Shown in pieces: positions 917 through 17,915 of a stretch of DNA of 18,701 nucleotides. Location of the stretch: IMG/VR virus record IMGVR_UViG_3300021599_001517, positions 1 to 18,701 of that record, one strand, 5' to 3'. The stretch's first letter is position 1. Every line of letters begins with the position of its first letter. Below the pieces are notes generated by a model. It searched no databases. It saw only the letters and a program-made list of their open reading frames with translations, and was not told where the DNA came from. This DNA comes from a virus. Its lineage: Duplodnaviria > Heunggongvirae > Uroviricota > Caudoviricetes. The translations under genes were made by a program, and so were the position numbers.

Positions 917-1255
917 ATGAGAGCACAAGAAATTATAAAATCTGTACTAGATCTTATTGATCAAATTGAAGGACCACAAGAACCTCAATCTATAGCAGTA
1001 GTCAGCGCAGAGCCTGAGGCAGAAATTGATCTAGACACAACTGATGATCAAATACGTCGTTTTCAACAAATTGCAGGGCTAATGGCTAAAGATCTTAACG
1101 ATACTAGTACCTACGCCAACGAACCAGATGAGATGTATGCAGATATTGATGCAGTGACAACCTTAGCAGGTGGTGGTCATAACGGACCTAAACACCCTAG
1201 CGATATTAGGGGAGAGCATCCTAGCATGTACCCATTCCTACAGCACAGGGGATAA
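917..1255 (+). CDS. Hypothetical acidic protein (112 aa)
   Basis: ORF after a TAAATA motif, tightly packed against the next gene; no recognised family. Confidence 0.8.
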   Translation: MRAQEIIKSVLDLIDQIEGPQEPQSIAVVSAEPEAEIDLDTTDDQIRRFQQIAGLMAKDLNDTSTYANEPDEMYADIDAVTTLAGGGHNGPKHPSDIRGEHPSMYPFLQHRG

Positions 1256-1257
1256 AC

Positions 1258-1692
1258 ATGGCTATAATAAACATCACAGTTCAAAGCCTGTTAAACACAG
1301 CAGTTTATGATCTACAAACAGTAGACACCGCAGGAACTATTGGTGATTTAAAAACTGCCATGGAAACTAACTTTTCATACTCAGCGGATTGGTTTGATTT
1401 AGTATTCAATAATCAAGTATTAGATACTGCACAAACTATAGGTTCTTATGGTATAGTGGAAGGTTCGCAGTTAAGAATTCATAATAAAATTGCAAGGCTA
1501 GCTACTAAAGAATTAAGACAAATAGCAAAATTAGATTTATCTGCATTGGATCGTGCTGCCAGCGGCAATGCTAGAGCAACTTACGACATTACACAGTTAC
1601 CTAATCCTTATAACGACAATGATGTAGATCCAGACGAAAATCCAAACACAGGTGGACTAGTTCAAGGCCGTCCATGGACCACTGGACCATAA
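1258..1692 (+). CDS. Ubiquitin-like (beta-grasp) domain protein with ~70-aa C-terminal extension
   Basis: Residues 22-74 align without gaps to ubiquitin 17-69 with 13 identities (V17,T22,I23,K27,D39,L43,F45,L50,T55,Y59,I61,S65,L67); INITVQSL resembles MQIFVKTL. No GG at the ubiquitin G75-G76 position. Confidence 0.7.
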   Translation: MAIINITVQSLLNTAVYDLQTVDTAGTIGDLKTAMETNFSYSADWFDLVFNNQVLDTAQTIGSYGIVEGSQLRIHNKIARLATKELRQIAKLDLSALDRAASGNARATYDITQLPNPYNDNDVDPDENPNTGGLVQGRPWTTGP

Positions 1693-1693
1693 G

Positions 1694-3046
1694 ATGGGCG
1701 TTCGAAACCCTAACTCAACAAACTATATTCATGCGGACGAGCCTAATCTTCTTAATCTGCATAAGGCTATGGAGTACAATGCTATTGGGCAACCTGTGCT
1801 TCGTGCCAACGTTAACCTAGTAGGCTCAGGCGAAGGTTCTGGAGTTAGTTCCAGCATAGACAGCAAAGGTCGTCTAAAAGTCCAGACACAACAAACTCTA
1901 TTCTTCAACACATTCCAGTATGGTAAAGAAACTGATGTGTGGGATGAGAGCGCAGTCAACGGAGCCTCCGCAGTATTTGACACTTCATTTAGTCAAATAC
2001 GCATGGAGGTGACAAATCAACTGGGATCCAAGGTCATACGACAAACCCGCAACGTTCAACGTTATACTCCAGGCCGCACACAGAGTGTGGCATTCGCTAT
2101 TAGGTTAGATACACCAACAACTGGCATCCGTCGTAGGTTTGGAATGTTTGATGGCACTGATGGATTTTTCTTTGAAGACTGTGGAACTGTTGATCCAGTA
2201 ACAGGTGAGCCACAGTATGCCTGTGTGATTATCAACAGTGATGGTGCTACACCCACAGTGGAAAGAATCTATCGCAAAGACTGGAACGGCGATAAACTAG
2301 ATGGTAACGGTCCCAGCGGTCTCACAGCAGATCCTCAAGCACAGCAGTTAGTCATGATGGATTACGAATGGTATGGTGCTGGACAGGTATCGTTTATGTT
2401 TGTGATGAACGGCTTGCCCAGAGTTATACACACCTTTAACCACGGTAATAGACTACAGAGTCCTTGGGCGAAAACTCCATTCTTGCCCATCAGACTGGAG
2501 ATAGAAAATCTCACTGGAGCCGCGGGCACACACTATCTATGGCAGGGCAGTAATAGTATTCTAGCAGAAGGATCGGTTGAAAAACTAGGCATCGCTGAAA
2601 GTATTCTAACACCGTTAACTGGTATCAACATGCCCTTGTCCAACACATTCTATCCCGTAGTCAGTATTAGAATAAAAAGCACAGCATTAACAGGCATTGT
2701 TATACCTACTTACTTCCAAGCAGGCACTGTAGACAACACTGACATTTACTTTAAACTTATACGCAATGCCACAGTAAACGGCACGTGGGTGGATCATCCA
2801 GATCCCAATGCTTTCACACAGTACAACTATACTTCAACGGGTGCTATCACAGACGGTGTTGAACTGTCAGCAGGTATCATTACAGCAGGCGGCGGTGCCG
2901 CACAGATTAGAGTGGACACCGACACAGTTTATCAAATTGGTCGAAGTAATTTAGGCACAGTCAGCGATAACTTAACCTTGGCTATCGCTGCCAAGAATGC
3001 CAACAAGAATGCTGTGGCCACAATGACTTGGATTGAACAGAGATGA
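1694..3046 (+). CDS. Hypothetical beta-strand-rich protein, possibly a virion structural or lectin-like protein (450 aa)
   Basis: Long ORF rich in T/G/V/N with alternating hydrophobic strands; no catalytic motif recognised. Function is inference. Confidence 0.75.
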   Translation: MGVRNPNSTNYIHADEPNLLNLHKAMEYNAIGQPVLRANVNLVGSGEGSGVSSSIDSKGRLKVQTQQTLFFNTFQYGKETDVWDESAVNGASAVFDTSFSQIRMEVTNQLGSKVIRQTRNVQRYTPGRTQSVAFAIRLDTPTTGIRRRFGMFDGTDGFFFEDCGTVDPVTGEPQYACVIINSDGATPTVERIYRKDWNGDKLDGNGPSGLTADPQAQQLVMMDYEWYGAGQVSFMFVMNGLPRVIHTFNHGNRLQSPWAKTPFLPIRLEIENLTGAAGTHYLWQGSNSILAEGSVEKLGIAESILTPLTGINMPLSNTFYPVVSIRIKSTALTGIVIPTYFQAGTVDNTDIYFKLIRNATVNGTWVDHPDPNAFTQYNYTSTGAITDGVELSAGIITAGGGAAQIRVDTDTVYQIGRSNLGTVSDNLTLAIAAKNANKNAVATMTWIEQR

Positions 3047-3468
3047 TCTACAGAAAATATATAAACATCGTAGAAGCAGCCAACAAAGGTTGTCCTATTG
3101 CTACCTACGACATAGACGTCAACCTAAAGAATCGTCAGAAGGCCATTGATGATTATCACTACGGCCCTGCTAATCCTGAGGAGCCAGAATCATATTGGAA
3201 GGATGCCGCAAAACGATGGGATATTACAGAAAAGACTGCTCGTACAATGCTGTGCGGTAACTGTGCGGCTTTTGATGTATCAGACAAAATGTGGACATGT
3301 ATTGAAGATGGTATCAAAGGTGATGAAAAATCTGCAGATGCTATGGCCACAATCCACAAAGCAGACTTAGGCTACTGCAACTTCCTACACTTCAAATGCG
3401 CCGGAGATCGTTCCTGCACAGCGTGGGTCACTGGCGGAGCAATAGATGACAAGGATCGTACAGAATGA
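3043..3468 (+). CDS. Cys-rich protein (7 Cys), possible Fe-S or metal-binding, HiPIP-like spacing
   Basis: CGNCAAF and GYCNFLHFKCAGDRSCTAW motifs; ATGA overlaps at both ends. Confidence 0.75.
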   Translation: MIYRKYINIVEAANKGCPIATYDIDVNLKNRQKAIDDYHYGPANPEEPESYWKDAAKRWDITEKTARTMLCGNCAAFDVSDKMWTCIEDGIKGDEKSADAMATIHKADLGYCNFLHFKCAGDRSCTAWVTGGAIDDKDRTE

Positions 3469-3857
3469 AAATACAAGATGTAGTTTCTGAAGGCAAGTTT
3501 AGATCTAGAGACATCGAGGATTATAAACCCGATAATGAAAAACTCAACGATCTAAAAAGCAAATATCTTCCAGACTGGGAAATGTTAGATCATAAAACTC
3601 TACAAGCCAAATACGTTGCTAAGGATCACAGACATGCCTTATCATTTGTAAAATTCATTAATGGTCTTTCGGAACGTATGGATCATTTTGCAGAAGTTAC
3701 ACAGGATGTTGCAGAAGTCACAGTAAAGACTACTACATTTGATGTCAAAGGGTTAACTGTATTAGATTTTAAACTGGCAATGAAAGTTGATCGTTACGCT
3801 GAAAAGAATGACATAGAACAAGTGCGTATGCAGGGCAACTTTGGTATGCATGAATAA
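3465..3857 (+). CDS. Pterin-4-alpha-carbinolamine dehydratase (PCD/PhhB/DCoH)-like protein, catalytically degenerate
   Basis: LPDW...HALSF...SERMDHF...VTVKTTTFDVKGLTVLDFKLAMKVD follows the PCD pattern, but the HH and TH motifs read HF and TF. Confidence 0.75.
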   Translation: MKIQDVVSEGKFRSRDIEDYKPDNEKLNDLKSKYLPDWEMLDHKTLQAKYVAKDHRHALSFVKFINGLSERMDHFAEVTQDVAEVTVKTTTFDVKGLTVLDFKLAMKVDRYAEKNDIEQVRMQGNFGMHE

Positions 3858-16379: not shown

Positions 16380-17915
16380 ATGGCCGTAGTCCAAATAAGC
16401 AAAATACAAATCCGTAAAGGAAAAAAGTTACAAACTGGGATTCCTCAGTTAAGTGGCGGTGAGTTCGCCTGGGCAGTTGATACACAAGAACTATACATAG
16501 GTAATGGTTCCGTGTTCGAAGGAGCTCCTTTAGTTGGTAATACTAAAATTTTAACAGAATACGATAATATTTTAGATCTTGCTAGAGGTTATAAATTTGC
16601 TTCCGGAAATCCTAGTATAACTAGAAGTGTATCTCGTTCAATACAATCAAAATTAGATGAATATGTAAGTGTGTTTGATTATGGTGCCAAGGGTGATGGC
16701 ACTACAAATGATACTGTTGCATTTCAAAGAGCATTAGATGATCTTTTTTTAAATGCAAATACAAATTTTAAAAAAGCATTATTCATTCCGTCTGGAAATT
16801 ATCTAATTTCTTCAGAATTACGTATTCCTAGTAGTGCAGTTATTATTGGAGACGGCCAGAATAATACAACTCTTCTCATGAATGCTAGTACTGTAACTTT
16901 TAAAACTTCTAGTAATTCAACTTTAGGAAATTTCACAGGGTCTAATAGGCCAGAAAATATTTCTTTATCAAATTTTAAATTTTATTTTACAAGTGGATCT
17001 TTAAATTTAACAGGCGTAAAAAATGCAAAGTTTGATAATATAATTTTTGAATCAACATATTCATTAGGCAACAGTACTGAAACTTCAATGGTTAACTGGT
17101 CTAATGACATTGACAGCACTAAAGTTACTGATATTTTCTTTTCTAATTGTAAATTTACCAAAGGATATATTGCAGTATCTGCAATATTTTCATCGGTACT
17201 AACTACCAGTGTAAATTTTAATAATTGTAATTTTTATATATGTGGTAAAGGAATTTATTTACAAGGGCAAGCCAATCAAAGCAATCAGTGGTCAATTCAA
17301 AATTCTCAGTTTGAATTAATCTTCAATCAAGCCATACATGTAACCAACGGTTACAATATGTCTGTGCAAAATAGTAAATTTTTAATTTGTGCAAATGGAT
17401 TGAATGATGCAGCTACTCCAACTTTACCTGTTATATCATTTTCTCAAACAAAAAATAACACAGTCATTGATTGTTATTTTGATAGAACACAAGAAGCCGG
17501 AGTATCAAATACATCATCTAAACCGGGATGGCCAGAAGTTCAGAATAGTTCAAAAACTACAATTATTAATAATGTTGTTACTGACATTGCACTGTCTGAT
17601 GGTCAAAGAACTTTAGCAGTATTTTCTGCGTTTAATAAATTTATAAAAATTGATTATGTATTAACTTTAGGAACAAGTATTAGAAAAGGTATATTAACTC
17701 TAATAGTTGATGGACTCAGTCCTAGTACTATATCGTTAACTGACGAATTTAATTTTACATCGGGGGTAACAGTCATGACAGGATTTGAATTTGGAACAAA
17801 CGTATTTGATAATAATTTAGATTCTGGGATTGATACTATTCAGTTATGGTATAGAAATCCAATTGCCAATCAATCCACTGGCACTATTTCTTATTTCATA
17901 ACATACGGTGTTTAA
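16380..17915 (+). CDS. Tail fibre/tailspike-like virion protein with right-handed beta-helix (pectate-lyase-3-like) domain
   Basis: N-terminal GEFAWAVDTQELYIGNG anchor-like motif; YVSVFDYGAKGDGTTNDTVAFQRA...FIPSGNYLIS start of beta-helix; repeated F.NC.F/.NS.F rungs. Confidence 0.8.
   Translation: MAVVQISKIQIRKGKKLQTGIPQLSGGEFAWAVDTQELYIGNGSVFEGAPLVGNTKILTEYDNILDLARGYKFASGNPSITRSVSRSIQSKLDEYVSVFDYGAKGDGTTNDTVAFQRALDDLFLNANTNFKKALFIPSGNYLISSELRIPSSAVIIGDGQNNTTLLMNASTVTFKTSSNSTLGNFTGSNRPENISLSNFKFYFTSGSLNLTGVKNAKFDNIIFESTYSLGNSTETSMVNWSNDIDSTKVTDIFFSNCKFTKGYIAVSAIFSSVLTTSVNFNNCNFYICGKGIYLQGQANQSNQWSIQNSQFELIFNQAIHVTNGYNMSVQNSKFLICANGLNDAATPTLPVISFSQTKNNTVIDCYFDRTQEAGVSNTSSKPGWPEVQNSSKTTIINNVVTDIALSDGQRTLAVFSAFNKFIKIDYVLTLGTSIRKGILTLIVDGLSPSTISLTDEFNFTSGVTVMTGFEFGTNVFDNNLDSGIDTIQLWYRNPIANQSTGTISYFITYGV

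Follow-up and report, generated by a model that had tools for sequence, protein, structure and literature searches.

Domains of the Pfam ubiquitin family (PF00240) are a eukaryotic hallmark, and viral examples otherwise belong to viruses that infect eukaryotes. What, then, is such a domain doing in a small gene of a tailed bacteriophage? The question was raised by an initial annotation of an 18.7 kb stretch of phage DNA (hereafter the window), which described a ubiquitin domain with a C-terminal tail and suggested that the protein might be a decoy or inhibitor of bacterial ubiquitin-like (Ubl) defence systems, or alternatively an adaptor module of the virion.

The 18.7 kb window opens an IMG/VR record of 82.7 kb that CheckV scores as 24% complete, so the whole genome would measure roughly 340 kb. 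Relatives of the ubiquitin-module gene are found on contigs of 200-380 kb, two of which are rated 100% complete (357-360 kb), and in one relative terminase, gp32-like and UvsX-like genes adjoin it, an arrangement compatible with a T4-like phage. The open reading frame encoding the 144-aa protein, P0001, begins 2 nt past the stop codon of the upstream gene and ends 1 nt ahead of the next ATG, and it is therefore a member of a tightly packed gene row (Table 1). Comparison with five relatives gave dN/dS values of 0.04-0.25 in both halves of the gene, figures that are qualitative because dS is near saturation. These values indicate that the gene is real and under purifying selection.

Table 1. Features of the ubiquitin-module gene and its surroundings (window coordinates)
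Feature	Position	Strand	Basis or remark
Upstream 112-aa gene, same tight gene row	917..1255	+	Without family; not conserved in L004, the sole relative compared
Ribosome-binding site (Shine-Dalgarno), AGGGGA	1247..1252	+	By sequence reading; 5 nt ahead of the ATG, within the end of the upstream gene
Gene for the 144-aa ubiquitin-domain and module protein (P0001), stop included	1258..1692	+	Open ORF; 644 relatives; dN/dS 0.04-0.25 (qualitative)
Ubiquitin-family beta-grasp domain, residues 1-75	1258..1482	+	Pfam PF00240; AlphaFold2 pLDDT >90; top Foldseek and VIA-align matches ubiquitin/ISG15
Conserved module of ~65 residues, residues 76-144	1483..1689	+	Alignments; ubiquitin-less occurrences; single copy per genome
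Module helix, residues 84-102	1507-1563	+	
L-V-Q-G-R-P-W, most conserved motif of the module	1657..1677	+	L..[GAH]RPW in 119/120 relatives
450-aa fibre-like lectin protein, phrog_1645 'virion structural protein'	1694..3046	+	PHROG E 8.7e-131
Disordered N-terminus of the lectin protein with conserved peptide, residues 1-37	1694-1804	+	

The gene had been described as late-expressed. The T4 late promoter TATAAATA occurs in the window at chance level (2 sites against 2.25 expected) with none close to the gene, so late expression is only implied by the tight packing with a structural gene. Among metatranscriptomes, one RNA library has a 226-nt contig (1094-1319, depth 2.4) that runs from the upstream gene into the first part of the ubiquitin-module gene, where DNA carry-over is possible, and a second has two contigs inside the lectin gene, a thin signal to which the same reservation applies. 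Elsewhere in the window, positions 1-771 hold a frame that is open at its 5' end, with an N-terminal part that matches phage glycosyltransferase PHROGs and a C-terminal part (VIYDVGACV...FEAMPE) that is methyltransferase-like by eye; the frame may be cut short by a frame shift near 690-770. A phage pterin-4a-carbinolamine dehydratase gene (Pfam PF01329, E 3.8e-18) lies at 3465-3857, in a row with structural genes.

The ubiquitin domain proved to be real. Pfam PF00240 matches residues 6-75 of P0001 with 28.4 bits (E 1.4e-6), above the curated gathering cut-off of 25.4 bits, and many relatives pass this cut-off too. The gapless alignment of residues 22-74 to ubiquitin residues 17-69 on which the initial annotation was built was reproduced in the same register by hmmsearch against PDB ubiquitins, and a recount returned the 13 identities claimed for it (V, T, I, K, D, L, F, L, T, Y, I, S and L). 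BLASTP of P0001 against a single unit of polyubiquitin gave 14/53 with no gaps. A profile of 27 family members found single ubiquitin units in the PDB at E values of about 1e-3 to 1e-4 and di-ubiquitin at 1e-8, and it placed family positions 21-73 on ubiquitin 16-68, which is once more the same register.

Structure prediction agrees with the sequence comparison. With the family alignment as input and no templates, AlphaFold2 produced a beta-grasp fold with pLDDT >90 over residues 1-80 (strands 3-9, 17-23, 46-50 and 71-76; helix 28-39). When this model was submitted to Foldseek against the PDB and Swiss-Prot models, the check that had been proposed for the fold, the top matches were ubiquitin with its variants and fusions, ISG15, NEDD8 and the UBL domains of ubiquilin, Dsk2 and OASL (TM by target about 0.9, rmsd 1.2 Å). 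VIA-align, an exhaustive structural aligner that is independent of Foldseek, superposed the model on ubiquitin and ISG15 with Z 14.3 and rmsd 1.2-1.5 Å over 75-77 residues, and its best 50 matches were mostly ubiquitin, SUMO or UBL domains.

The domain is also closer to ubiquitin than to ThiS/MoaD, as had been proposed. No ThiS/MoaD protein appeared among the best 50 structural matches of the model from Foldseek or VIA-align, which by itself is not decisive, and none of the ThiS/MoaD Pfam families matched P0001 at E <= 0.1. Given this Pfam result and the lack of a terminal GG, P0001 does not qualify as a sulfur carrier of the ThiS/MoaD type. V49 and R73, the counterparts of ubiquitin I44 and H68, vary little or not at all in the alignment of 27 relatives, and their conservation suggests that the classical ubiquitin interaction face may be in use.

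What had been taken for a C-terminal tail is instead a separate module, at least as conserved as the fold that precedes it (mean pairwise identity of 0.64 for the module and 0.58 for the ubiquitin domain among the 27 relatives). Its layout starts with N76-x-I78-x-x-L81, continues with a helix in which Q88, A90, K91, L92 and L94 are invariant in the same alignment, and then runs through R106..Y-D-I..L-P..Y118 to L134-x-x-G-R138-P139-W140, where L134, R138, P139 and W140 are invariant in aligned relatives. No family in Pfam, PHROG or NCBIfam corresponds to the module, and an ESM Atlas feature search with it gave no usable match. In the AlphaFold2 model its last 28 residues (117-144) fall below a pLDDT of 50, behaviour that would be typical of a segment folding on a partner.

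A profile search covering 1.8 billion representatives was used to see how the module is deployed. It occurs (a) behind a ubiquitin domain in short proteins of 138-146 aa, the form present in the window; (b) behind a ubiquitin domain and in front of a further C-terminal domain; and (c) without a ubiquitin domain, at residues 3-67, again followed by a C-terminal domain. One relative has a beta-rich N-terminal region preceding the ubiquitin domain and the module. The domains that follow the module are Laminin_G_3, PA14/GLEYA, ILEI and Gly_rich_2, and PHROG matches of these C-terminal extensions fall in virion structural, baseplate wedge and tail fibre families. Sixty distinct related loci comprised 40 with the short and 20 with the extended form. 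Exactly one copy of the module was found per genome in the five genomes searched, two complete ones included.

In another phage the slot of the ubiquitin-module gene is filled by a protein made of the module and Laminin_G_3, without a ubiquitin domain. The large terminase gene (TerL) borders this slot at one end; at the other lie a methyltransferase gene and a 92/93-aa gene, whose versions in the two phages are 78% identical. The presence of a ubiquitin-less form in the same slot indicates that the locus is a variable adhesin-type gene cassette with the module as its constant piece. We also considered that ubiquitin-less forms might be split genes, and rejected the idea: the 93-aa gene in front does not encode a ubiquitin domain and is the orthologue of the unrelated 92-aa gene.

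The ubiquitin-module family comprises 644 clusters at 90% identity, and the stretch was detected in freshwater and lake metagenomes of 17 studies. Neither a tblastn search of P0001 against 50,697 GenBank phage records nor a megablast search with the first 6 kb of the window gave a match; none of the cultured phages in the GenBank set has a homologue. P0001 belongs to no PHROGs, NCBIfam or PADLOC family, with the proviso that PADLOC 2023 may be without models for Bil/Bub Ubls; an AbiEi match at E 0.023 was discarded as noise. All BFVD structural matches came from eukaryotic viruses, save two relatives within the family. Two BFVD/UniProt entries of 'uncultured Caudovirales phage', A0A6J7WM86 and A0A6J5LJ96, are members of the family, and one of them has been automatically named 'Interleukin-like EMT inducer' from its ILEI head. 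Such naming after the head indicates that the ubiquitin domain and the module are unannotated in public databases, and no published description of the family was found in the literature.

We then turned to the gene with which the ubiquitin-module gene is most often paired. The gene immediately downstream encodes a fibre-like protein in 51/60 loci and the large terminase in 3, and in loci other than the window the order ubiquitin-module, fibre, TerL was observed. The fibre-like neighbour is missing in a few loci, and the pairing is therefore not obligatory. In the window the model of this neighbour (1694-3046; pLDDT 81) has a disordered N-terminus followed by two ConA-like/galectin-like beta-sandwiches in tandem, and the top Foldseek matches were the receptor-binding domain of TM4 mycobacteriophage gp23, tandem galectin-8, GH16 glucanases and legume lectins. 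Across loci the fibre-like protein has three parts, namely a conserved N-terminal peptide, a repeat shaft of variable length (GNVNIPG-type) and a phrog_1645 domain of ~390 residues. The peptide comes either as type 1 (R-x-N-[ST]-T-x-Y-x-H-P-x-E-x-N-L-L-x-L-H-K-A-M) or as a shorter type (K-P-W-Y-L-R-N-I-T-E-A-L-A-L-D). Homologues of the lectin fibre (L004:10444-12666; L013, L017, L033, L081) differ chiefly by insertion of a repeat shaft of the GNV.I.G / GNISVTGNIAGITSLPSIQAN type; among relatives the protein ranges from 443 to 859 aa, while both ends, the peptide at the N-terminus and the lectin domain at the C-terminus, are retained.

Lectin homologues of ~50% identity are present in 162 phage records, mostly of Synechococcus myoviruses, and are annotated as virion structural proteins. 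In these cyanophages no ubiquitin-module gene adjoins the lectin gene, and a weaker form of the conserved N-terminal peptide is visible in their homologues; the proposal that the peptide is the specific partner of P0001 was dropped on these grounds. Complex prediction with whole P0001 and residues 1-62 of the neighbour returned a score of 0.00, which weighs neither way on binding. Fusion of the two products by frameshifting or read-through was likewise rejected, since the offset between the frames of the two genes varies (0, 1 and 2 across loci) and there is thus no conserved recoding.

Lake metagenomes offer a view of the locus at the level of populations. DNA contigs of two runs match positions 900-1790 with one or two differences and break at about 1782-1789, just inside the lectin gene. 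Beyond ~1789 the summed depth climbs to 50-300 from a level of about 10, and variant contigs and loose ends are numerous. The breaks and variants inside the lectin gene (from about 1755), which set in directly behind the conserved N-terminal peptide, could reflect either strain-level hypervariability or a lectin body common to several phage genotypes, and the pattern of breaks is as expected for a host-recognition locus. A second, distinct gene of host-recognition type lies at 16380-17915 of the window. Its 511-aa product begins with a match to Mtd_N (Major tropism determinant N-terminal domain) of 24.6 bits, under the 26.3-bit cut-off, and continues as a pectate-lyase-like beta-helix; its PHROGs are tail spike and pre-neck appendage. 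On three contigs of related jumbo phages (L006, L007 and that of P0134), genes for ribosomal protein S21, HSP20, ClpS, a ClpB-like AAA+ protein and a CHASE2-guanylate cyclase are found near the ubiquitin-module gene.

Because ubiquitin is best known as a tag, we asked whether this domain could be attached to other proteins. The initial annotation had pointed out that GG is lacking at the position of ubiquitin G75-G76, and this holds for the family: none of the 120 closest relatives has GG within residues 69-86, at the end of the fold, and the chain of P0001 continues from there into the conserved helix. A chain-terminal Gly was seen in 1/120. The family therefore does not carry the Gly or Gly-Gly at the fold end that would identify a conjugatable modifier. 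The TGG-L reported near the C-terminus is indeed present (NTGG-LVQGRPW), with the GG at residues 132-133 (bases 1651-1656), 57 residues past the fold. When its conservation was checked as had been proposed, the RPW was kept, whereas GG precedes L..GRPW in only 71/120 relatives (59%), the rest having ST, DG, AG, NG, TG, SG or another pair.

The conjugation enzymes give a similar picture. While only the window had been said to lack E1, E2 and JAB genes, searches of the 82.7 kb record and of the two 100%-complete relatives found neither a ThiF-type E1 (PF00899) nor a Prok-JAB (PF14464), and control genomes were positive for both; for E2, the UQ_con model (PF00179) had no match in the searched genomes, and the control genomes gave none either. 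Host-encoded enzymes apart, the phage genomes thus do not supply a cognate E1 and JAB. Taken together, the lack of E1 and JAB, the lack of a C-terminal Gly, the poor conservation of GG, the ubiquitin-less forms and the lectin fusions make a covalent modifier role of the ubiquitin domain very unlikely.

We consider it somewhat probable that P0001 is a two-part structural adaptor of the phage host-attachment apparatus, present here in a head-less form. Of the two roles initially put forward, that of a virion adaptor module is the one favoured by the lectin fusions, the independence of the module and the synteny with fibre genes; an adaptor is preferred to a decoy because the protein is non-conjugatable and because its module is fused to sugar-binding domains in relatives. 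In this proposal the non-conjugatable beta-grasp of residues 1-75 would serve as a protein-protein interaction or assembly domain rather than a covalent tag. The module, disordered alone, would fold when docking to a virion component and so anchor the protein. Within a modular protein family of uncultured, probably T4-like freshwater jumbo phages the module is the part that stays constant, with carbohydrate-binding heads placed C-terminal to it in relatives and an optional ubiquitin domain N-terminal to it, and P0001 would be produced together with the adjacent lectin-type fibre protein. The fold, the domain make-up, the family, the synteny and the lack of conjugation features are shown by the data, whereas a virion location, an anchoring role and a partner are what we infer for P0001.

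Two kinds of known system are close to such an adaptor. P0001 resembles ubiquitin and the eukaryotic integral UBL proteins (Rad23, Dsk2/ubiquilin, OASL and parkin) in its PF00240 membership and its beta-grasp (Z 12-14, rmsd 1.2-2 Å). Like P0001, the integral UBL proteins have an uncleaved N-terminal domain followed by other modules, and their use of it is non-covalent. P0001 differs from these eukaryotic proteins in being phage-encoded, in lacking the di-glycine, in having a phage-specific module after the domain, with lectin domains further on in relatives, and in having no proteasome or ubiquitin machinery. The second kind is that of the modular adhesins of T4-like cyano- and pelagimyophages, in which a conserved region is combined with swappable lectin heads (Laminin_G_3, PA14), as in the module family; both are located in a variable cassette next to a gene of receptor-binding type. 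Unlike its counterpart in these adhesins, the putative attachment module described here is uncatalogued and mostly preceded by a ubiquitin domain, and in this phage it bears no head.

A non-structural role in assembly would fit the same synteny. P0001 might help the neighbouring lectin fibre (or, in relatives, a fused lectin head) to fold or to be mounted and be absent from the particle, as is reported for lambda gpI. This protein of lambda and T1 (TAPI), the nearest precedent for P0001, has a Ub-like domain at its N-terminus that a linker connects to a small C-terminal domain; its gene adjoins gene J for host specificity and gene K for a JAB/NlpC peptidase, and it is reported to be absent from the mature tail (PMC1779556). 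TAPI and P0001 are alike in being small phage proteins with an N-terminal ubiquitin-like beta-grasp and a small C-terminal part, encoded beside a gene of host-specificity type, a likeness of position that is by analogy only, the lectin neighbour not being a gpJ homologue. The tight coupling to the fibre-like gene and the disorder predicted by AlphaFold2 for the module on its own would both suit an assembly factor.

The resemblance does not extend much further. TAPI is related to ThiS/MoaD and has a conserved Gly at the fold end and a Gly-rich linker, whereas P0001 is of the ubiquitin family and has no such Gly. TAPI is flanked by the JAB/NlpC peptidase gpK, whereas the complete relatives of P0001 and the 82.7 kb record are without a Prok-JAB partner, and the lambda tail I family had no Pfam match to P0001 at E <= 0.1. 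In architecture P0001 is nearer to the eukaryotic integral UBL-domain proteins than to TAPI. Moreover, lectin domains are on the same polypeptide in a third of the relatives, which would be odd for a chaperone that is discarded. Phage fibre chaperone genes usually sit downstream of the fibre gene, which also speaks against an assembly factor at this position. On balance we regard a non-virion assembly factor, the main rival to the adaptor, as unlikely.

The other role initially put forward was that the protein acts against Ubl-based defence. As a decoy or inhibitor of Bil, Bub or CBASS Cap2/Cap3, P0001 could bind E1, E2 or DUB enzymes non-covalently or shield fibres from Ubl conjugation. Such a role would make sense of a ubiquitin domain gene adjoining fibre-type genes, given that the central tail fibre of the phage is a target to which Bil attaches its Ubl (10.1101/2023.09.04.556158), and the near-invariance of V49 and R73 would provide a putative interaction surface. 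The bacterial defence Ubls (BilA, the Bub Ubls and the C-terminus of the type II CBASS CD-NTase) are, as P0001, beta-grasp proteins in the conflict between phage and bacterium. They have a C-terminal Gly, operon-encoded E1/E2 and trimming by a DUB, whereas P0001 is without C-terminal Gly, E1 and JAB.

The proposal of a decoy nevertheless gained no support from our analysis. P0001 lacks a conjugation-type C-terminus and its closest structural matches are eukaryotic Ubls, not bacterial ones; the module is independent, with ubiquitin-less forms filling the same slot; the fusion to lectin heads indicates a structural job; the gene is almost always in an adhesin/fibre cassette; and nothing ties the hosts to Bil or CBASS. 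We therefore judge a decoy or inhibitor to be quite improbable, and we would put equally little weight on the variant in which the ubiquitin domain is a non-covalent mimic, made with or mounted on fibre proteins, that blocks or diverts a Bil-type defence. If it were true, this would be the first phage counter-defence built on the ubiquitin fold.

A role in DNA packaging, as a small-terminase-like or terminase-associated protein, is suggested by gene position, since the gene lies where T4-like phages have gp16, upstream of TerL (directly in 3 loci, one gene off in others). A search for a T4-type TerS (PF11053) in the two complete relatives also found none, a weak argument given that control genomes were blank as well. 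Against a packaging accessory, hhalign with the TerS of cyanophage S-RIM2 gave a probability of 0.1%, P0001 has no TerS Pfam match, the module has a single helix and not the helical core of TerS, lectin fusions would be senseless for a terminase subunit, and no terminase is encoded near the gene in the window. A small-terminase identity was rejected on the hhalign result and the lectin fusions, and any packaging function is in our estimation highly improbable. Least credible of all is a processed conjugatable modifier, cut by a protease after GG 132-133 so that the ubiquitin domain and linker are ligated to targets: the GG-L that inspires it is shared by just over half of the relatives but replaced in the other 41%, it is the residues after GG that are invariant, the GG is remote from the fold, and the two complete relatives encode neither a ThiF E1 nor a Prok-JAB.

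In summary, a large protein family of abundant freshwater jumbo phages has a ubiquitin-type domain among its conserved parts, where it is coupled to an undescribed module, putatively for attachment, and to swappable lectin heads. If P0001 is a structural adaptor, the ubiquitin fold would have been put to use in the adsorption apparatus of a phage, as an adaptor that is mechanical or serves assembly, and the module would be a new one for annotating the receptor-binding cassettes of uncultured phages.
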